A stretch of DNA of 64,000 nucleotides from a virus. The notes beneath the pieces are model-generated. The model worked only from the letters and a program-made list of their open reading frames with translations, did no database searches and was not told the DNA's origin. A program made the position numbers and the translations under genes. Every line of letters begins with the position of its first letter. Position 1 is the first letter of the stretch. Shown here one piece after another: positions 1 through 50,704 of the stretch. The stretch covers positions 1-64,000 of the IMG/VR virus record IMGVR_UViG_3300023180_000036; one strand, given 5' to 3'.

Positions 1-1
1 A

Positions 2-130
2 AGAATTGGTGGACTTCATAATTATAACGCATACGGAATAAAAATGTATATACAAGATGCAAAAATTACCAGAGGATTGGCAAAATACACTGCAAACTTT
101 ACACCGCCTACAGAATCATTTAAAGCATAA
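2..130 (+). CDS. 3' end of a LamG/concanavalin-A-like virion protein (partial)
   Basis: Frame 2 reads ...YIQDAKITRGLAKYTANFTPPTESFKA*, the typical C-terminus of phage LamG domains. Confidence 0.65.
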   Translation, partial: RIGGLHNYNAYGIKMYIQDAKITRGLAKYTANFTPPTESFKA

Positions 131-134
131 TACT

Positions 135-172
135 TTCCCTATCCTCAACTAAGTACTCTTTTATTATATACT
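135..172. repeat. 38-bp exact repeat, copy 1 (copy 2 at 48896-48933)
   Basis: TTCCCTATCCTCAACTAAGTACTCTTTTATTATATACT is identical at both sites. Confidence 0.95.
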
Positions 173-191
173 GGGTTTAGATAAATGTAAA
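163..191 (-). promoter_or_regulatory. Leftward sigma70-type early promoter
   Basis: Minus strand TTTACA-17 nt-TATAAT. Confidence 0.75.
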
Positions 192-206
192 CCCTAAAAT
201 TAGTTA

Positions 207-235
207 TTTACATTATATAGATAATAGTATATAAT
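207..235 (+). promoter_or_regulatory. Early promoter for the glycan island
   Basis: TTTACA-17 nt-TATAAT, T4 early-type -35 box. Confidence 0.8.
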
Positions 236-261
236 AATTAAAACAATAGGATGATTTCGTT

Positions 262-1041
262 ATGAAACGATTGATATATCAGGTATACGTTGGAAAGCGT
301 TTAAAACTTTATGATCATTGTGTAAATTCAGTAGCAGAATATTGTAAAAAATATGATATTACTCACGAAGTACAAAGAACTCCCATTCTTAGAATAAAAC
401 CCGACGTGTTTGTAACAAACCGTAGTCGTGAATCATATGAAAAATATGGCGGTTTCTTACCTATATACGAAAAAGAAAATGCTTTTTCTTATTTAAAAAC
501 TTATGATCAAGTTGCCATTATAGATGCCGATGTATGGATAAGACCAAACTCTCCAAATATTTTTGATGACCTAGAACCAGAATATGATTTTGGTGGAGTA
601 GTTGAACGTGAAATGCCTCTTACAAATCAATATAAATCTAAGATTATTGATTATTCAAGAATGCAATATTCTACAATTAAAAAAGTAAACTGGAAATGGA
701 ATAATCTTGGTGCAGAATTTATGAATATGGGTATTATGGTTATGAATCAAAAGATTCAGAAATATTTAAGAGGAGAAACTCCTGCACAATTTATTAGACG
801 ACCAGAGTTTAAATCTTTTGTTGATGGAATGGGTGCTTGGAAATGGTCTACAGATCAAACTCTTTTAAATACTTGGATACGTGAAGAGAATATGAAAATT
901 AAAAATATGGATTGGAGATGGAACGGTTTATTTACTGCAAATACTCGAATTAAAGAGTGCTACTTTGTTCATTTTTTTAAAAAACAATCATTGCCTATGA
1001 ATGGAGAAAATATAAAAGAATTGATGGAATTTGTACAATGA
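262..1041 (+). CDS. Putative GT-A glycosyltransferase
   Basis: IIDADVW DxD motif, MNMGIMV, TDQTLLN, W.WN and FVHF motifs resembling GT8/GT34. Confidence 0.7.
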   Translation: MKRLIYQVYVGKRLKLYDHCVNSVAEYCKKYDITHEVQRTPILRIKPDVFVTNRSRESYEKYGGFLPIYEKENAFSYLKTYDQVAIIDADVWIRPNSPNIFDDLEPEYDFGGVVEREMPLTNQYKSKIIDYSRMQYSTIKKVNWKWNNLGAEFMNMGIMVMNQKIQKYLRGETPAQFIRRPEFKSFVDGMGAWKWSTDQTLLNTWIREENMKIKNMDWRWNGLFTANTRIKECYFVHFFKKQSLPMNGENIKELMEFVQ

Positions 1042-1829
1042 AAAAATTAATATATCAAGTTTGCATTGGTCAAAAAAGTAATTTATATGAATATTGTATT
1101 AATTCTGTAAGTGAATACTGTAAAAGAATAGGAGCTAAACATATAGTTCAGAGAGAACCAATTCTTAGAATTAAACCCAATCCATTTATGAATCAAAGAG
1201 AAGGTAAAACCGGAGGCTGGAAAAAATATGGATACATGCCAATCTTTGAAAAAGAAAATGTTTTTAATTACTTTAAAAAATATGATCTATGTTGTGTAGT
1301 AGATGCCGATATTTATATAAGACCAAATTCTCCAGACATATTTGAAAACTTTAATCAGCAATATGCACTCGGTAGTATATACGAATGTGATTTACCCATA
1401 AATGATAATTACGCACAGAAAATAAAAAATTATTCTAGTATGCTTTCTATGTTTAAATTAGATTGGGATATAAAACCAAGAACTGGACACTCTTTTTTTA
1501 ATTCTGGAGTTATAATATATAATAGTAATAAAATGATAGAAGTGTTAAAAGGAATGAGTCCTAAACAATTTTTAGAACAACAAGAGCTACAAGATTTTAT
1601 AAATGGTATAGGTCCGTTTAAATGGCAATCAGATCAAATGACTCTTAACTATTGGTTAAAAAGAAATAAAATTGATGTACAAAGAATGGATTGGAAATGG
1701 AACTGTTTATATTCTACAGTAAATGACGAAGACTTAAAACAATCTTACTTTGTGCATTTTTTCTTAAAGGATCATCTACCTGATAAAGGTGAAAATATAA
1801 CTAAATTGATGGAAAAAATTAATGTATAA
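1038..1829 (+). CDS. Putative GT-A glycosyltransferase, tandem paralog of 262-1041
   Basis: Collinear similarity (KLIYQV, PILRIKP, PIFEKEN, DADIYIRPNSP, FNSGV, DQ..LN). Confidence 0.7.
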   Translation: MKKLIYQVCIGQKSNLYEYCINSVSEYCKRIGAKHIVQREPILRIKPNPFMNQREGKTGGWKKYGYMPIFEKENVFNYFKKYDLCCVVDADIYIRPNSPDIFENFNQQYALGSIYECDLPINDNYAQKIKNYSSMLSMFKLDWDIKPRTGHSFFNSGVIIYNSNKMIEVLKGMSPKQFLEQQELQDFINGIGPFKWQSDQMTLNYWLKRNKIDVQRMDWKWNCLYSTVNDEDLKQSYFVHFFLKDHLPDKGENITKLMEKINV

Positions 1830-1986
1830 TATTTCAACAGTATGTCCAACTCGAGGTCGACCATATTCGTGTGAAAAAATAGTTAAAAGTTGGATTAGGG
1901 CCACAAACAATTCTGAACTTATTATATACTTTCAAAATGATGATAATGAAGAAAATTTAAAAAAATATAGAGAATTAGTCAAATGA
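1822..1986 (+). pseudogene. 54-aa N-terminal fragment of a GT2-like glycosyltransferase
   Basis: MYNISTVCPTRGRPYSCEKIVKSW...IIYFQNDD resembles a GT2 N-terminus; stop overlaps the next ATG. Confidence 0.5.
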
Positions 1987-2549
1987 CAATATTATATGAT
2001 ATAGGAGCATATAAAGGATCATTTACTCGTAATATTATTAAAAAAAATCCTAATGTAATTTCTTATATGTTTGAAGCAAACAATAAATTAACAAAGCCTA
2101 AAGATTTAAAAAAACATTATTGGTTTAATTGTGTACTTTCATCTAAAGATAATAAATTAGTTAATTTTTATTACAGAGGCGGAACGGGAGATTCTTATTA
2201 TAAAGAAACAGATATGACCGGTGCATATACTGATCCTAATTCTTATGATTTACAGATTAAAAAAACTAAACATCTTACAGAATTTAATATACCTTTACCT
2301 GATATTATTAAAATTGATACTCAAGGATCCGAATTAGATATTTTATCAGACTGTGATGAAATTTTAAATTACTGTAATACAATATATACGGAAATGCCGG
2401 CACCAAACATGGTTTACAATCAAGGAGCTCCCTCATATGAAGAATATGTAGATTTTTTTAAAAAGCACGGTTTTATAAATTTTTCTATTGAAAAAGAACA
2501 TGTAAAAAGAAATGAAGTATATCAATACGACATAAGGTTTACCAAATGA
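1983..2549 (+). CDS. FkbM-family SAM methyltransferase
   Basis: YDIGAYKG, FEAN and IKIDTQGSELDIL motifs. Confidence 0.85.
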   Translation: MTILYDIGAYKGSFTRNIIKKNPNVISYMFEANNKLTKPKDLKKHYWFNCVLSSKDNKLVNFYYRGGTGDSYYKETDMTGAYTDPNSYDLQIKKTKHLTEFNIPLPDIIKIDTQGSELDILSDCDEILNYCNTIYTEMPAPNMVYNQGAPSYEEYVDFFKKHGFINFSIEKEHVKRNEVYQYDIRFTK

Positions 2550-3289
2550 AAAAAGATTGGCAAGATTTTTTAAGAAATATACGGACTGAATTGAAATCAC
2601 ACCCTAATGATTTTCTATCTCAAAACACTATATCATACACTGTTCATCCACATTTTACTGGTAATGCTTTGACTTCGCCGCTTTATCGGGATATGATAAA
2701 GCTAGATTTTTTTCAGGATTTGAAAGATCCGTCGTTCGGTAAGCCTTATCTAGGATTTGATGGGCAGTATAGTATATCTACTATTCAATCCGCATATTAT
2801 ATCAATATTTTAAAAAATGCAGGTTACGGACCAGAGATCCTAAACCATGTTACAGATATTGGTGCAGGTTATGGTAATTTATGTAGGTCTTTTTATAAAA
2901 CTGGATTCAAAGGAAAATATAATGTAGTTGACTTCTCCATAATGGGAGAAATGCAAAAGAAGTGGCTAGACAACACTCTTGGAAAAGAATACAATTATAA
3001 AATTTGCGAAATGACTCCACAGAATTTAAATCCATCACAGGAAAAAAGCTTACTGGTTGGAACATTTAGTATTAACGAAATGCCAATGTCGGAACGCATT
3101 AAAATAGAACCTTTTTATCATCTATATGATTTTATTCTTATTGCATTTAAGAATAATGCAAACTTTGGTGTCGATAATCTACCATACTTTAAGGGTCTTA
3201 TAAATAATCTTAATTTATCGCATAATCTGAAAATTACAAAGTGTTCTTATTTTAAAAATAATCTATTTTTAACGGGAATTAAACTATGA
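2546..3289 (+). CDS. Putative sugar O-methyltransferase
   Basis: DIGAGYGNL SAM motif I and TFSINEMP. Confidence 0.65.
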   Translation: MKKDWQDFLRNIRTELKSHPNDFLSQNTISYTVHPHFTGNALTSPLYRDMIKLDFFQDLKDPSFGKPYLGFDGQYSISTIQSAYYINILKNAGYGPEILNHVTDIGAGYGNLCRSFYKTGFKGKYNVVDFSIMGEMQKKWLDNTLGKEYNYKICEMTPQNLNPSQEKSLLVGTFSINEMPMSERIKIEPFYHLYDFILIAFKNNANFGVDNLPYFKGLINNLNLSHNLKITKCSYFKNNLFLTGIKL

Positions 3290-13953: not shown

Positions 13954-14361
13954 ATGTATTACTATATCGACAACCGACCAAAAAATATTTCATTTAAATT
14001 TTTAGATGAGGTATTAGACTTTGCTCAATATTATTTGGGTTTAAATTCAGATTATATAATAAAAATAGTGTTTTTAGGTGATCTTGGAGATACGGTGTGG
14101 GGGTACTGCAACGGTCTTGAAGATGAAGATTATGTGATAGAAGTGAGTTCCAAGTTAAGTAGTGGAGATATAGTAGAAACCATATTTCACGAATTAGTGC
14201 ATGTAAAACAAATTATAGATGGTAGATTAGATGATGATGGAAGAACATGGAAAGGTAAAACTTACGATACAGTAAAAACACCATATAAAGAACTGCCTTG
14301 GGAAATAGAAGCATTTGAACTTCAAAAACTTATGGCAAATGAATTTTTTTCTGCCAAATAA
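13954..14361 (+). CDS. Zincin-like metallopeptidase
   Basis: FHELVH HExxH motif and PWEIEA. Confidence 0.7.
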   Translation: MYYYIDNRPKNISFKFLDEVLDFAQYYLGLNSDYIIKIVFLGDLGDTVWGYCNGLEDEDYVIEVSSKLSSGDIVETIFHELVHVKQIIDGRLDDDGRTWKGKTYDTVKTPYKELPWEIEAFELQKLMANEFFSAK

Positions 14362-14372
14362 CATTTTAGGGG

Positions 14373-14401
14373 TTTACAAACTGGTTAAAATATACTATAT
14401 T
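14373..14401 (+). promoter_or_regulatory. Early promoter
   Basis: ATTTTAGGGGTTTACA-17 nt-TATATT. Confidence 0.7.
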
Positions 14402-14433
14402 AATAGTATAAAGAGAATCGGAAGGAAGAAAAA

Positions 14434-16051: not shown

Positions 16052-16819
16052 TTACTTATGATACCAATCCAAATCTGGGGCTATAATATCTACAGATTTA
16101 CCTTTAATTGGAGCAAGATTCATTGGAGATTTTTTTACACTCTTTATTGACATCTCAAAGGTAAACTGATAATTACCACCACCTTTAGCTTGTACTCTTG
16201 CTCTATATCCTAGAGTTGCAGCTTGACTAAATCTAGGGACACCTTTAAACTTTAGGGGGTTGGATGGACCGAGTAAATAAAATCCTGTAGTTCCTACATT
16301 TATATAATATGTTTTTTTCTTATTATAATATAACTCAATATTAGATGCAGGTATTTCAGCTTTAACTTCTTCAAATCTTTTTAATTCTTTTGCATAGATA
16401 GCACGTTTATCAAGACCTTCAATTTCAGCTTTTAATTCTGGAGAAGTGGAAAATTTATAAGGTTTGTTTTTCCACTTATCATTTATTGCATCCAATACAC
16501 CATATGTCATAGCTAAATTACGAATAAATATCTTTTCTTCTTCTGTAGGTTTTGGTTCATCAAAATACCATTTTCCATTGGCATATTTAATAACTAAAGA
16601 TCCTCCGGAAGCACCTGGAGAAATTTTTAATTCACAGCCAGACTGTTTACCTGCTCTTTGAATCATAAGATCTGGAATATCGGAACCTGCTCCGGCAGGA
16701 GTAAAATCTTTTGGAACTATACCCATAGGTTTTAAAACTTTTACTGCGTTTACTTCATATTGAAAACCTTGTTGTGCAGTACTAACCATTTCTGTAATGT
16801 ATCCTCTAAAAGTTTGCAT
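16052..16819 (-). CDS. Putative PD-(D/E)xK nuclease with a T4 capsid-targeting-like N-terminus
   Basis: GFQYE...PDLM...CELK motif; N-terminus MQTFRGYITE; minus-strand TATAAATA at 16852-16859. Confidence 0.6.
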   Translation of the reverse strand: MQTFRGYITEMVSTAQQGFQYEVNAVKVLKPMGIVPKDFTPAGAGSDIPDLMIQRAGKQSGCELKISPGASGGSLVIKYANGKWYFDEPKPTEEEKIFIRNLAMTYGVLDAINDKWKNKPYKFSTSPELKAEIEGLDKRAIYAKELKRFEEVKAEIPASNIELYYNKKKTYYINVGTTGFYLLGPSNPLKFKGVPRFSQAATLGYRARVQAKGGGNYQFTFEMSIKSVKKSPMNLAPIKGKSVDIIAPDLDWYHK

Positions 16820-20617: not shown

Positions 20618-20665
20618 TACTTTTGTATATGGAAAGATAATGAGTATAGGTATACATTTTAGGGG

Positions 20666-20694
20666 TTTACAAACCATTAAAAATGTGATATGTT
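20666..20694 (+). promoter_or_regulatory. Early promoter
   Basis: ATTTTAGGGGTTTACA-17 nt-TATGTT. Confidence 0.7.
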
Positions 20695-20719
20695 CAAAAT
20701 ATAAAGAAAGGAATAAAGT

Positions 20720-23556: not shown

Positions 23557-23996
23557 CTTTAGCAAATAATCCAACACCTGATTCAATAGGTACTGGGGAT
23601 TTTTATTTTGATTCAGCTGGAGATATTGTTGAAGCTAATACCGATTTAGTTTCGGCTATATCTCTTTCTTCTACATCATCCACAGGATCTTTAGAATTTT
23701 CAAACATATCTTCATCCAATCCAAAAACTGGATTTAACAATACGGAAATATTAGAAGCACAATCTATAACATCAACCTCGTCTACAGGAGTTTTAGAATA
23801 CGCAAACATATCTTCATCCAATCCAAAAACTGGATTTAACAACACAGATATATTTGAAATTCAATCTGTATCATCTCATACGCCTACTGCTATTATTACA
23901 CAAGCAGAAATAAAAGCAAATAATCCAATTACTGGATTCGGCACTTCTGGTGTGGATCCAAAAATAATTAAATACGAAATGACAATAAGGATATAA
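23553..23996 (+). CDS. Repeat-containing putative structural protein
   Basis: 34-aa repeat with NISSSNPKTGFNNT. Confidence 0.55.
   Translation: MTLANNPTPDSIGTGDFYFDSAGDIVEANTDLVSAISLSSTSSTGSLEFSNISSSNPKTGFNNTEILEAQSITSTSSTGVLEYANISSSNPKTGFNNTDIFEIQSVSSHTPTAIITQAEIKANNPITGFGTSGVDPKIIKYEMTIRI
23701..23842 (+). repeat. Direct repeat with 102-bp period
   Basis: CAAACATATCTTCATCCAATCCAAAAACTGGATTTAACAA at 23701 and 23803. Confidence 0.9.
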
Positions 23997-46966: not shown

Positions 46967-48474
46967 TGGATATAGTTAAAATACAAAAGAAAGATCATGC
47001 AAATATGATTATTGGATGTGATTGGGGTATTGCTCAAGAATTATCTGATTATTTTTCTTTCTTTGTTCCTGGTTATAAATTTATGCCTTTATATAAAAAT
47101 AAGGTATGGGACGGCAAAATAAGATTATTTAATGTAAATAATTGTGAACTTTCTTGTGGTCTTATATCTTATGTAAAAGATTTTTGTGAAAAAAGAAATT
47201 ATCAATTAGAATATGAAGAAAGCCAATTTGGATTACCTGAATCATATAATGAAATAAATCCAAATGATATAATGAATTTTATAAAAAATCTTAATCTAAA
47301 AAGTAAAGGTGAATCTATTTCTATTAGAGATTACCAATTTAATGCAATATGCGAAGGATTAAAAAGAAAAAGATCAATACTTTTATCTCCTACAGGATCT
47401 GGAAAATCTTTAATTTTATATTGTTTATCTAAATATTGGTTACAAATGCTAACAGATGGTTGGAAATATCCAAGAGCGGGAAGAGTATTAATCATTGTTC
47501 CGACAACATCTTTAGTAGAACAAATGTATGGTGATTTTATAGATTATGGACAAAAACCAGAAGGTATGCATAAAATATACTCTGGTAAAGATAAAGATTT
47601 TGAAAGTGCTATTTGTATAAGTACATGGCAATCAATATATAAAATGCCAGCTGCCTGGTTTGATCAGTTTGGTATGGTTTTAGGAGATGAATGTCATGGA
47701 TTTAAATCAAAATCTCTTACAAATATAATGAATAAATGTAGACTTGCTGAATATAGATTTGGTACTACAGGCACATTAGATGGAACACAAACTCATCAAC
47801 TTGTATTAGAAGGTCTTTTTGGCAAGGTAATGAAAGTTACTACAACCAAGACTCTACAAGATAATCAGACACTTGCAGATTTAGAAATTTTTATGATACA
47901 ACTTCAGTATAGCGAAGAAATTAAAAAACAAATAGTAGGATTACAATATCAAGATGAAATAGACTATATTGTTAAATATGAACAAAGAAATAAGTTTATA
48001 AGGAATCTTGCTTTAGATCAAAAAGGTAATACATTAGTTTTATTTCAGTTTGTTGAAAAACATGGAAAACCTCTTTTTGATTTAATAAATACTAAAGCTA
48101 AAGAAGGTAGAAAAGTATTTTTTGTAAGTGGTGCTACTGAAACTTCTGATAGAGAAGCTATTAGAAAAATAACAGAAGGACAAAAAGATGCTATCATTGT
48201 TGCTAGTCTTGGTACTTTTAGTACTGGCATTAACATACGGAATTTGCACAATATTATTTTTGCAAGTCCTTCAAAGTCACAAATCAAGGTCCTACAGTCT
48301 ATTGGTAGGGGACTTCGGAAATCGGAAGATGGATCAAATACTAGACTCTATGATATAGCTGACGATTTTAAATATAAATCGAGAAAAAATTATGCACTTT
48401 TGCATAGCGAAGAAAGATTAAAAATTTATAAAAAAGAAAAATTTAATTTTAAATTCTATAAGGTTCCAATATGA
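46966..48474 (+). CDS. uvsW: UvsW helicase
   Basis: SPTGSGKS, DECH and LQSIGRGLR. Confidence 0.95.
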   Translation: MDIVKIQKKDHANMIIGCDWGIAQELSDYFSFFVPGYKFMPLYKNKVWDGKIRLFNVNNCELSCGLISYVKDFCEKRNYQLEYEESQFGLPESYNEINPNDIMNFIKNLNLKSKGESISIRDYQFNAICEGLKRKRSILLSPTGSGKSLILYCLSKYWLQMLTDGWKYPRAGRVLIIVPTTSLVEQMYGDFIDYGQKPEGMHKIYSGKDKDFESAICISTWQSIYKMPAAWFDQFGMVLGDECHGFKSKSLTNIMNKCRLAEYRFGTTGTLDGTQTHQLVLEGLFGKVMKVTTTKTLQDNQTLADLEIFMIQLQYSEEIKKQIVGLQYQDEIDYIVKYEQRNKFIRNLALDQKGNTLVLFQFVEKHGKPLFDLINTKAKEGRKVFFVSGATETSDREAIRKITEGQKDAIIVASLGTFSTGINIRNLHNIIFASPSKSQIKVLQSIGRGLRKSEDGSNTRLYDIADDFKYKSRKNYALLHSEERLKIYKKEKFNFKFYKVPI

Positions 48475-48893
48475 TTGACATAAACAACGTTAAACAAATA
48501 AAACTTTCAGATGGTTCGGAAATTATTTGCGAAATAATGGAAGAACTCGAAGAAGATATTGTTGTTCGCTGTGCTTTTAGAATAGCAAGAATTGATTTAG
48601 ATGTAGAAAGAAGTTATTATATGTTTAAACCTTGGATGACATATGTAGAAGAACCTGATCATTTCGTAACAATTAATTTATATCATTTACTTGCCGCTAC
48701 AATTCCATCCAAAGAAATTTTAGAACAATATGAAAATGCTATAGAAAAAATTAATGAAGCACGAAATGAAAAACAAGATAATATAATCCAAGCTTCAACT
48801 AAAGAAGTAAAAGATCAGATTACAGTAAAACACGATTCAGAATCTGATAATGTATTAAAATTCAATTTTGTGGATAAAACTAAATTACATTAG
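48471..48893 (+). CDS. Conserved T4-like hypothetical protein downstream of uvsW
   Basis: QIKLSDGSEIIC and FKPWM. Confidence 0.65.
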   Translation: MIDINNVKQIKLSDGSEIICEIMEELEEDIVVRCAFRIARIDLDVERSYYMFKPWMTYVEEPDHFVTINLYHLLAATIPSKEILEQYENAIEKINEARNEKQDNIIQASTKEVKDQITVKHDSESDNVLKFNFVDKTKLH

Positions 48894-48895
48894 TA

Positions 48896-48933
48896 TTCCC
48901 TATCCTCAACTAAGTACTCTTTTATTATATACT
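48896..48933. repeat. 38-bp exact repeat, copy 2
   Basis: Identical to 135-172. Confidence 0.95.
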
Positions 48934-48952
48934 AGATTCGGGTAGCTGTAAA
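48924..48952 (-). promoter_or_regulatory. Leftward early promoter
   Basis: Minus strand GTTTACA-17 nt-TATAAT. Confidence 0.75.
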
Positions 48953-48986
48953 CAAAAAAATATTGCAATTTTAAATAAATTAGTTG

Positions 48987-49015
48987 TTTACAGCCATCTT
49001 GTATTAGTTTATAAT
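48987..49015 (+). promoter_or_regulatory. Early promoter for gp55
   Basis: GTTTACA-17 nt-TATAAT. Confidence 0.8.
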
Positions 49016-49038
49016 ATATAGGTAAAAGGTTTATATTT

Positions 49039-49635
49039 ATGGTAAAGAAAACAAAAAACGTACACTATATTAATAATTCAGAATTTTCTCTGGCTATTGT
49101 TGATTATGTTAAAAAAGTTACTGTGGCAAAGGAAAGCAATGAAACTTTGCCTGTTGTCCCAGATTATATAGCTAAAAGCTTTTTACAAATTGCTGAAAAT
49201 TTATCCCATAAATCCAATTTTATTAGATATACATATCGTGAAGAAATGGTAATGGATGCAGTTGAAAACTGTTTAAAAGCAATAGAAAATTATGATATAA
49301 ATGCAACAACAAGATCAGGTAAACCAAATGCTTTTGCTTATTTCACTCAAATTATATGGTATGCTTTTTTACGAAGAATTACAAAAGAAAAGAAACAACA
49401 AGATATTAAAGAAAAATATTTAGCACAATCAGGAATTGATGCTTTCCTAGTAACAGAACTTGGTACAACAGACCCATCATCTCAAGTGGCTAATCACTTT
49501 ATAGATACATTAAAAGATAGAATTGATAAAGTAAAAGCTTATGATACAGAAATTAAAACCTTTTCAAAGAAAATAAAAAATAAAAAGAAAAGAGCAATTA
49601 ATGTAGACTCTGATTTATCGGATTTTTTGGAATAA
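49039..49635 (+). CDS. gp55: Late sigma factor
   Basis: HYINN, YTYREEMVMD and NAFAYFTQI..AFLRRI.KEK. Confidence 0.95.
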   Translation: MVKKTKNVHYINNSEFSLAIVDYVKKVTVAKESNETLPVVPDYIAKSFLQIAENLSHKSNFIRYTYREEMVMDAVENCLKAIENYDINATTRSGKPNAFAYFTQIIWYAFLRRITKEKKQQDIKEKYLAQSGIDAFLVTELGTTDPSSQVANHFIDTLKDRIDKVKAYDTEIKTFSKKIKNKKKRAINVDSDLSDFLE

Positions 49636-49642
49636 TATATAA

Positions 49643-50704
49643 ATGAAAATAGCAGTATTAAATGATACTCATTGCGGTATCAGGAATAGTTCTGATGTGT
49701 TTTTAAATAATGCAGCAGATTTTTATGAAAACATCTTTTTCCCATATTGTAAAGAAAATGATATTAAGCAAATTATTCATCTTGGTGATTATTATGATCA
49801 TCGTAAATTTGTTAATTTTAGGGCGTTAAATCATAATAGGAAACATTTTTTATCACATCTACGTGATTATGGTATGACTATGGATATTATACCTGGTAAT
49901 CATGATACCTATTATAAAAATACAAACGATTTAAATAGCCTAAAAGAACTACTCGGCCATTTTATGAACGAAATTAATATTATTATGGACCCACGTGTTC
50001 TTGAATACGGCTCACTTAAAATTGCAATGTTACCCTGGATTACCCAAGAGAATTATGATAAATCTATGGAATTTATTAAAAACTGTAAAGCTGATTGGCT
50101 GGGCGGGCATCTTGAATTAACAGGATTTGATCTTATGAGAGGAGTTGTAAATAAACATGGTATGGATCACTCTGTTTTTTCAAGATTTGAAAAAGTTTTA
50201 TCTGGTCATTTCCATACTAAATCACATAAAGATAATGTAATTTATTTAGGAACACAAATGGAATTTTTCTGGTCAGATGCTCATGATCCTAAATATTTTC
50301 ATGTAATAGATACCGAAACAAGAGAAATGGAAGCTATTAGAAATCCATATACTTTATTTGAAAAAATAATATATGATGATTCAAAAAGGAATTATTCAGA
50401 ATATAATGTAGATCATTTAGATTATAAATTTGTAAAAATAGTTGTAATTAATAAATCTGACCTCTTTACATTTGACCGTTTTATTGATAGAATACAAAAT
50501 AGAAAGATTCATGAATTAAAAATTGCAGAAAACTTTAATGAGTTTATCGGAGAAAATGTTGAAGATGAAAATATCTCTTTAGAGGACACCGAAATGCTAT
50601 TAGATAGTTATGTTGATGCAGTTGAAACTGATCTTGATAAAGATAAAATAAAAGTAAATATGAGAAAACTTTTAACAGAAGCACAGTCTATGGAAATAGT
50701 TTAA
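49643..50704 (+). CDS. gp47: Mre11/SbcD-like nuclease
   Basis: DTHCG, LGDYYD, GNHD and SGHFH. Confidence 0.95.
   Translation: MKIAVLNDTHCGIRNSSDVFLNNAADFYENIFFPYCKENDIKQIIHLGDYYDHRKFVNFRALNHNRKHFLSHLRDYGMTMDIIPGNHDTYYKNTNDLNSLKELLGHFMNEINIIMDPRVLEYGSLKIAMLPWITQENYDKSMEFIKNCKADWLGGHLELTGFDLMRGVVNKHGMDHSVFSRFEKVLSGHFHTKSHKDNVIYLGTQMEFFWSDAHDPKYFHVIDTETREMEAIRNPYTLFEKIIYDDSKRNYSEYNVDHLDYKFVKIVVINKSDLFTFDRFIDRIQNRKIHELKIAENFNEFIGENVEDENISLEDTEMLLDSYVDAVETDLDKDKIKVNMRKLLTEAQSMEIV

Follow-up and report, generated by a model that had tools for sequence, protein, structure and literature searches.

The window analysed here, 64,000 nucleotides long, is the first 64 kb of the IMG/VR virus record IMGVR_UViG_3300023180_000036, a contig of 82,462 bp with a G+C content of 32% and a CheckV completeness of 42%. 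The contig is that of a T4-like phage, with tail tube, uvsY, a uvsW-type helicase, a 140-aa protein of phrog_527, gp55, gp47, and gp46 at 45.9–52.5 kb, and its long open reading frames (ORFs) are nearly all on the plus strand. Late motifs (TATAAATA) are found throughout 12–48 kb of the window and sigma-70-type sites from 48.9 kb onward. The element in question is a short cassette that is present at two sites, in which a leftward sigma-70-type promoter and its leader point against the genes, with a rightward promoter placed back-to-back to it. Which operon follows the cassette depends on the site: the glycan island for site 1, gp55-gp47-gp46 for site 2, and, at a third site seen in relatives, nrdB-nrdA. 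The features of the two sites are the following:

120–128, minus strand: ATG-CTT-TAA, read here as an incidental minigene, its ATG spanning the GCA-TAA junction of the plus-strand gene
128–130, plus strand: stop codon TAA that closes the upstream gene, of which a C-terminal fragment lies at 2–130 (weak PHROG hits phrog_24074 and phrog_38322)
131–162, minus strand: predicted discriminator and leader of the site 1 leftward transcript (exact repeat; leader consensus of 62 relatives)
complement of 137–146, minus strand: site 1 G-rich tract GAGGATAGGG
163–191, minus strand: site 1 leftward promoter, with the −10 box TATAAT at 168–163, a 17-nt spacer, and the −35 box TTTACA at 191–186
207–235, plus strand: site 1 rightward promoter TTTACA-17-TATAAT, serving the GT8-like first gene of the glycan island at 262–1041 (the GT8 assignment comes from a weak hit on the orthologue in the relative G003)
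48885–48890, minus strand: ATG-TAA, read here as an incidental start-stop, complementary to the Leu(TTA)-His(CAT) codons that end the plus-strand gene
48891–48893, plus strand: stop codon TAG of the 140-aa gene at 48471–48893 (phrog_527), the gene following uvsW
48894–48923, minus strand: predicted discriminator and leader of the site 2 leftward transcript, within the stretch identical at 43/43 positions to the orthologue L185
complement of 48898–48907, minus strand: site 2 G-rich tract
48924–48952, minus strand: site 2 leftward promoter, with the −10 box TATAAT at 48929–48924, a 17-nt spacer, and the −35 box TTTACA at 48952–48947
48953–48986, no strand: A+T-rich DNA separating the back-to-back −35 boxes
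48987–49015, plus strand: site 2 rightward promoter TTTACA-17-TATAAT, serving gp55 (49039–49635), then gp47 and gp46

The exact 38-bp repeat shared by the two sites (135–172 and 48896–48933), first described in a sequence-only reading of the window, was recovered as stated: a search allowing up to 3 mismatches returned these two matches only, none of 100 shuffles returned any, and the whole 82,462-bp contig contains no third copy. The similarity between the sites extends over 66 nt at 85%. Consistent with the same reading, the repeat lies just past the stop codon of a plus-strand gene at both sites (4 nt after the TAA and 2 nt after the TAG), both leftward promoters are perfect TTTACA-17-TATAAT matches whose spacers are unlike at 8 of the 17 positions, the rightward AAATTAGTT(A/G)TTTACA-17-TATAAT starts at 207 and 48987, and the minus strand does read ATG-CTT-TAA (128–120) and ATG-TAA (48890–48885). 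From the promoter geometry, about 28 nt of the repeat would be transcribed, with starts near 156–157 and 48917–48918. Perfect TTTACA-17-TATAAT sites number nine in the contig, compared with a mean of 0.16 (sd 0.38, maximum 2) in 200 dinucleotide-preserving shuffles, and the spacer is 17 in all nine, although 16–18 was permitted; the seven on the plus strand lie at gene boundaries, and the two on the minus strand are the leftward cassette promoters.

Two further repeats were noted. At site 1 only, a 7-bp inverted repeat, GGGTTTA...TAAACCC (173–194), overlaps the leftward −35 box, and many relatives have GGGTTTGTAAACCC in its place. A second promoter-like repeat family, ACATTTTAGGGGTTTACAAAC...TATATT...ATAAAGAGAATCGG, with 80% identity over 54 nt, is found at 14361–14414, at 20654–20707, and also near contig position 76893, beyond the window; it has the form TTTACA-17-TATATT with its own shared leader and is oriented with the genes.

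Selection, which the sequence-only reading had inferred to act on the RNA, is borne out for the promoter and the leader, where it may act on RNA or DNA, and not for the start-stop minigene, as set out below. In comparison with the orthologous locus L185, the stop codon, leader, and −10 box of the window are identical at 43 of 43 positions and the −35 box at 6 of 6, whereas identity is 78% and 81% in the coding DNA on either side, the spacer matches at 10 of 13 positions, and the inter-promoter DNA matches at 24 of 34. A 34-nt core of the repeat is present, exactly, in 7 other viral contigs, and looser patterns found more. Judged by gp55 protein, phage C48C1, of the Kyanoviridae, has the nearest deposited genome (58% identity), and cyanophages come next with about 45%; a megablast of window positions 1–3000 against the phage collection gave no matches, and the runs that contain the window DNA are salt-marsh metagenomes.

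For a wider comparison, 80 gp55 loci with 61–91% protein identity were fetched, which together with the window gave 81 regions, 71 of them non-redundant, and leftward promoters were scored by the best match to {TTTACA, TGTACA, TTGACA}-16..18-TATAAT. Upstream of gp55, a leftward match without mismatches was found in 46/71 regions and one with 0–1 mismatches in 63/71, whereas reversed sequences gave 1 and 5 of 71, and shuffles 2 and 19 of 355; under the same scoring, gp55's own rightward promoter was found in 32/71 (0 mismatches) and 61/71 (0–1). The same layout is present in C48C1, with a leftward TTGACG-17-TATAAT, and in the cultured Prochlorococcus phage P-SSM2 (AY939844.2), in which a leftward TTGACA-17-TACAAT (one mismatch) lies just upstream of gp55 and is followed by the leader ...GGGUUGAUGGGAUGG.... 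At the third locus (L006), the −35 box, the 17-nt distance, and the −10 box are kept and the spacer is unrelated. These comparisons indicate that the cassette is under strong selection and is conserved clade-wide at the uvsW/gp55 junction. That the leftward and rightward promoters of a phage might co-vary in their −35 variant was also considered; the pattern proved inconsistent (e.g. L190, L191), and the idea was discarded.

In the 62 aligned leaders, the −10 box is followed by an A-rich discriminator, then by a stretch rich in U, a purine tract, AUAUAC, and the complement of the upstream stop codon, in that order. The purine tract, which had been described as similar to a Shine-Dalgarno (SD) sequence, is indeed a constant feature: it lies at +16 to +27, where it is 50–71% G, a G-rich tract is present there in 62/62 leaders, purines make up 74–97% of positions +16 to +26, and the tract is there with or without an RUG (ATG or GTG) behind it. 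The best 12-nt window of the leader contains a mean of 7.1 G compared with 4.0 for the gp55 5′ untranslated region (UTR), with all 56 paired differences in the same direction. Upstream of the leftward −35 box, 40 nt are 79% A+T in the 62 relatives, compared with a locus mean of 66%. What each copy contains is the −10 box and the non-coding leader, of about 25–30 nt, of a genuine host sigma-70-type promoter that points against almost all genes and has none of its own.

In many lineages among the relatives L188–L264, an inverted repeat is present directly past the −10 box, within the first 15 nt, with arms that vary by phage (AAGAG/CTCTT, AAAGA/TCTTT, AAGGA/TCCTT, AAACT/AGTTT, AAATC/GATTT). Stems of at least 5 bp are found in 15/62 loci compared with 2% of shuffles, and the stem of the window lineage has just 3 bp. 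The 5′ arm lies within the discriminator and so may not be in the RNA.

The cassette is not confined to one junction. In the relative G003 (177.5 kb, 86% complete) there are three copies, all against the gene direction, located between an FG-GAP protein and nrdB nrdA, between a 450-aa protein and a GT8-like gene, and between uvsY uvsW phrog_527 and gp55 gp47 gp46; the second of these is the orthologue of site 1 of the window and has TATACT as its −10 box. At the nrd copy of G003 the long upstream ORF stops 47 nt before the element, which makes the position directly past a stop codon common, not universal. The more distant relative G008, a complete 146.6-kb genome with terminal repeats, contains three copies of a leader of its own, of which those at gp55 and at the ribonucleotide reductase (RNR) junction are identical and the third differs at a few positions. 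In the region 12120–12620 of L268, this third copy is oriented with the genes and runs right up to the ATG that starts a gp25-like baseplate wedge gene. In a further relative, G006 (L283, 17198–19924), a sister copy heads four tightly packed minus-strand ORFs of 206, 209, 243, and 210 aa, none of which has a PHROG hit. P-SSM2 and C48C1 have one copy each of their own leader (≤3 mismatches in 31 nt). As side observations, the G008 arrangement puts a host-type promoter on a late structural gene for which G003 and G007 carry TATAAATA late promoters, and the four ORFs of G006 lie back-to-back with TATAAATA late promoters and a plus-strand ORF of 4,427 aa.

Among 46 non-redundant nrdB junctions, a perfect leftward promoter is present in 17 and the cassette with its G-rich leader in about 20. 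The leaders of these nrd copies are 0–5 edits (of 30 nt) from a gp55-junction leader of the window type or of the G006 type, with one outlier at 8, and distinct gp55 leaders are a median of 13 edits apart in 30 nt; the comparison for the G006 type is between nrd and gp55 copies on separate contigs. The leader is thus specific to the lineage yet independent of the locus, which implies either concerted evolution or co-evolution with a common partner. The gene that ends at the cassette is of at least three unrelated kinds at the gp55 junction. The cassette is a portable promoter-plus-leader module, an orphan at operon-head junctions and, in two relatives, placed at the head of real genes.

In the sequence-only reading, the leader was proposed to load ribosomes on a start-stop or two-codon minigene and to act as a ribosome or tRNA decoy, as the bar minigenes of phage lambda do. 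An SD-like tract does lie 7 nt ahead of the ATG at both window sites, and 48 of the 62 non-redundant gp55-junction leaders have an ATG or GTG 4–14 nt past the G tract. A search of relatives for a conserved AUG-stop showed, however, that homologous elements do not keep the SD-AUG-stop arrangement: the ORFs that begin at the 48 RUGs vary in length between 1 and 97 codons and share no conserved peptide, and in 14/62 gp55 loci the RUG is missing altogether. There is no ATG in the site 1 orthologue of G003 or at the third locus (L006, L141, L139, L106), and no RUG in the leader of C48C1 or of P-SSM2. In the six close gp55 orthologues the minus strand reads ATG-AAG-TTT..., because the Leu codon of the upstream gene, which ends in CTT CAT TAG, is CTT and not the TTA of the window (TTA CAT TAG); in the two of the six for which it was counted, L185 and L187, the resulting ORF has 11 codons. 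In 45/48 loci the RUG is complementary to the His codon that precedes the stop of the plus-strand gene (CAT in 24, CAC in 21), and a start-stop arises in 9 of these 45, exactly where a Leu codon TTA or CTA precedes the His. As TTA and CTA make up 9 of the 16 Leu codons at that position, compared with 54% of Leu codons genome-wide, the start-stop is as frequent as Leu codon usage predicts and is therefore not enriched. The AUG-UAA of site 2, moreover, has no sense codon, and without an elongator codon it cannot trap tRNA as bar does. The AUG-stop and AUG-CUU-stop are a coincidence, a side effect of the C-terminal codons with which the upstream genes happen to end, and the decoy can be given hardly any credence. 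A more general caution for annotation follows from this, in that start-stop and mini-ORFs beside SD-like tracts can arise purely from C-terminal codons on the opposite strand.

RNA data for the locus consist of contigs from four metatranscriptome runs (X15–X18) on 47400–50400, which are sparse and unstranded, such that start, end, and strand of a transcript are unreadable in them. As an observation apart, the X15 and X17 contigs show matches of about 20 nt on either side of 48455–48965 with 364 other letters between them; the matches are too short to trust, and the replacement may come from a co-occurring relative with a different insert for the 140-aa gene and the leftward promoter. A search of L001, L002, and L006 (8,734 bases) against Rfam in E-value mode gave no matches. 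As for a target in trans, G000 and G003 were scanned beyond the copies themselves and hold no further 9- or 10-mer from the C-rich part, save one 11-nt overlap in G003, and the other recurring words in that scan are all A+T-rich and of low complexity. A literature search found no paper on a leftward promoter or RNA upstream of gp55, and a 2025 review of phage small RNAs lists, in its passages on cyanophages, just Rfam-type motifs and CfrI (PMC12197685).

The reading favoured here, tentatively and with somewhat less than even confidence, is that the cassette acts at a boundary, where a stabilised, ribosome-binding, untranslated RNA and the polymerase that makes it would oppose read-through from the late-promoter block into the sigma-70-driven operon. 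According to this model, host RNA polymerase would fire leftward from about 157 and about 48918, ahead of the takeover by late transcription, and the product would be an untranslated or barely translated RNA, whose 5′ polypurine SD-like tract (GAGGAUAGGG) would bind 30S subunits and, by analogy with a 5′ stabiliser of the STAB-SD type, stabilise the RNA. Transcript and polymerase would then meet head-on the 3′ end of the preceding late-promoter gene block, and collision and pairing would dampen read-through at the boundary between the late block and the sigma-70-driven operon, the function being tied to the cassette and the boundary and not to a particular upstream gene. That the leftward promoter fires before the late takeover, and that the G-rich leader is the functional part, is what we infer from the conserved promoter and leader. 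The boundary role is favoured because the copies always lie at such boundaries, because no terminator is predicted there (none of the intrinsic type at 48000–49300), and because the same leader serves as a working 5′ UTR elsewhere, in the gp25-like copy of G008 and in G006; to judge from its place ahead of the ATG in G008 and at the head of ORFs in G006, the leader can act as a 5′ UTR and ribosome-binding site. The retention of the cassette whatever gene lies upstream argues against silencing of a specific gene.

Several points weigh against a boundary role. The early or middle timing is assumed from the type of promoter, and the G tract contains more G than an ordinary SD does and is often a poor match to GGAGG (GGGUGGG in G008), such that it fits R-loop nucleation as well as ribosome binding. 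Simple collision or antisense action does not require the same lineage-specific leader at different junctions, and the G008 copy that is oriented with the genes is not antisense there. One unstranded metatranscriptome contig of 261 nt (48839–49099) covers the intergenic region from end to end, a result not expected from two divergent transcripts by themselves. A terminator-like hairpin with a T-run within the first 400 nt is found in 6/62 loci compared with 2/62 for the sense-strand control and is thus not conserved, and the predicted fold of the leader RNA is not unusually structured (z = −1.44).

Some of these points are accommodated by an alternative model, judged possible though rather unlikely and placed behind the boundary role, in which the RNA of the gene-less promoter, with its G clusters made from a C-rich template no more than about 25 nt past the start, would seed a persistent RNA–DNA hybrid that primes replication, and the A+T-rich DNA that separates the back-to-back promoters would be under-wound as the two fire divergently. 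The cassette would then be a replication origin of marine T4-like phages, namely the Kyanoviridae and uncultured relatives, which may lack MotA, with a universal copy at uvsW/gp55 and extra copies at nrd or elsewhere that are homogenised per lineage by recombination, a proposal to which we give the same limited credence. Both the persistent hybrid and autonomous replication at the cassette are proposed by analogy. Such an origin would explain the independence of the upstream gene, the G clusters that exceed an SD, and the multiple lineage-matched leaders better than the boundary role does: the promoter is an orphan and yet is conserved whichever gene lies upstream, the G tract, which is on the non-template strand, packs its G more densely than an SD does, the near-complete and complete genomes of G003 and G008 have three copies each, tens of kb apart, and the universal copy lies just downstream of uvsY-uvsW. 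The transcript of a T4 origin can also double as mRNA, which would fit the gp25 copy of G008 and the copy of G006. In the account of PMC3016281, T4 origins are recombination hot spots (Kreuzer and Alberts, cited there), which the concerted lineage-specific leaders would fit, and its T4 precedents, with a promoter plus downstream DNA, an early-mode promoter at oriE, and sites near divergence and late-gene regions, fit as well. Untranslated antisense RNAs are described as R-loop-prone in E. coli (PMC5909445). Against an origin stands the absence, downstream, of the defining A+T-rich unwinding element, as the leader is 59.5% and positions +33 to +82 are 66.4% A+T in the 62 loci, compared with a locus mean of 66.0%, and it is the inter-promoter DNA that is A+T-rich (79%), not the DNA downstream of the leftward promoter. 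R-loop formation in T4 is, as described in the same account, not sequence-specific (PMC3016281), and the 43/43 conservation is thus left unexplained. A first GC-skew profile had hinted at steps at 2 of the 3 G003 sites; the test on five genomes gave nothing consistent, with a step at the gp55 copy in 0/5 genomes, 2/5 of the other testable copies reaching the top 5–6% of steps, and one further step accounted for by a change of gene strand. P-SSM2 and C48C1 have a single copy, and the promoter is of host type, with a −35 of TTTACA, TGTACA, or TTGACA at 16–18 nt, not of the MotA middle mode; a Pfam search for MotA in G003 and G008 gave no hit, and control genomes were equally silent.

It is improbable, and more so than an origin, that the repeated promoter module is a short homology patch for swapping gene blocks between co-infecting phages, similar to the promoter-stem-loop cassettes (PeSLs), with leftward transcription being incidental. 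PeSLs are described as repeated sigma-70 promoter cassettes tied to indels (PMC4122927), and several observations would suit such a patch: the neighbours at the junctions differ among relatives, with three kinds of upstream gene at gp55; the same junction holds a class I nrdBA in G003 and a 745-aa RNR in G008; the glycan island carries the third copy in G000 and G003, whereas in G008 gp25 does; and paralogues within one lineage share the leader. Homology alone, however, leaves unexplained why the −35 box, the 17-nt distance, and the −10 box survive amid divergence of the spacer, and it is likewise insufficient for a G tract that is kept although the leaders of different lineages differ by so many edits. 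The cassette also lacks a stem-loop terminator, is present in 2–3 copies only, and is oriented opposite to the genes.

Few viruses of the ocean are as abundant as the T4-like phages that infect marine bacteria and cyanobacteria. To our knowledge, the replication origins of these phages have not been mapped by anyone, and a literature search on the subject found no mapping paper; we also know of little on how late transcription is separated from early and middle transcription when all genes share one direction. The cassette provides a concrete handle on both questions, being short, recognisable from sequence alone, and present in 63/71 non-redundant gp55 loci as well as in cultured P-SSM2. The comparisons made here point to a promoter and G-rich leader that are conserved in many ocean phages, for which a role as boundary RNA or as origin is proposed; were the origin to be the true reading, marine T4-like phages would have their long-sought replication origin.

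Two other features of the window are recorded for completeness. The minus-strand ORF at 16052–16819 (255 aa) is among the few long ones on that strand, and upstream of it, on its own strand, there is an ATAAATA, one base short of the TATAAATA late motif, and no cassette. At 23637–23840, a unit of 102 nt is tandemly duplicated with 76% identity within a plus-strand ORF.

Among known systems, the lambda bar minigene is built of an SD followed by an AUG, a single sense codon, and a stop, its two-codon ORF yielding peptidyl-tRNA. Site 1 of the window resembles it in having an SD followed by the very short ORF AUG-CUU-UAA; the cassette differs in that the minigene is not kept in homologues and is a bare start-stop at site 2. 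STAB-SD and the polypurine 5′ mRNA stabilisers of phage SP82 (Bacillus) place an SD-like tract near the 5′ end of an RNA, with no need for an ORF. The cassette leader has such an SD-like polypurine tract near its 5′ end, likewise independent of an ORF; those stabilisers are known from Gram-positive hosts and from mRNAs, whereas the cassette RNA would be antisense, and 30S binding and stabilisation are proposed only.

PeSLs number in the tens. With them the cassette shares the form of a short, repeated, near-consensus sigma-70 promoter (TTTACW-N17-TAYWAT in the T4/PST pair, as described in PMC4122927) and the location at junctions where gene content differs between T4-type relatives (as reported in Arbiol 2010, PMC2839356; Comeau 2014, PMC4122927). 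In the latter description, a PeSL has a stem-loop terminator next to its promoter and the orientation of the genes around it, and PeSLs occur in hyperplastic regions (PMC4122927), whereas the cassette has no terminator, is present in 1–3 copies, contains a conserved G-rich leader, and in all G000 and G003 copies points against the genes. The T4 origins oriF (uvsY), oriG (34), and oriE are similar to the cassette in that, as they are described in PMC3016281, the promoter transcript need not encode anything, several sites exist per genome, and the sites lie beside late-gene regions and at transcriptional divergence, with uvsY and uvsW among the neighbours; at oriE, further, the promoter needed is of the early mode, that of the host type (Kreuzer and Brister 2010, PMC3016281). 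They differ in that oriF and oriG have a MotA middle-mode promoter and a downstream A+T-rich unwinding element, neither of which was found at the cassette, and, in the same account, in that T4 origins share no sequence motif (PMC3016281), whereas the cassette leader is conserved and G-rich.

Lambda OOP, a cis-antisense RNA, is the likeness in position, as the cassette promoter lies beyond the stop codon of a gene and points back over the 3′ end of that gene. OOP is a discrete RNA of 77 nt with its own terminator and a single fixed target, cII. It is included, together with CfrI, in the phage small-RNA table of PMC12197685. The cassette, in contrast, has no conserved terminator (6/62 vs 2/62), the gene upstream of it varies, and the part that is conserved is the 5′ leader, which lies outside the target.

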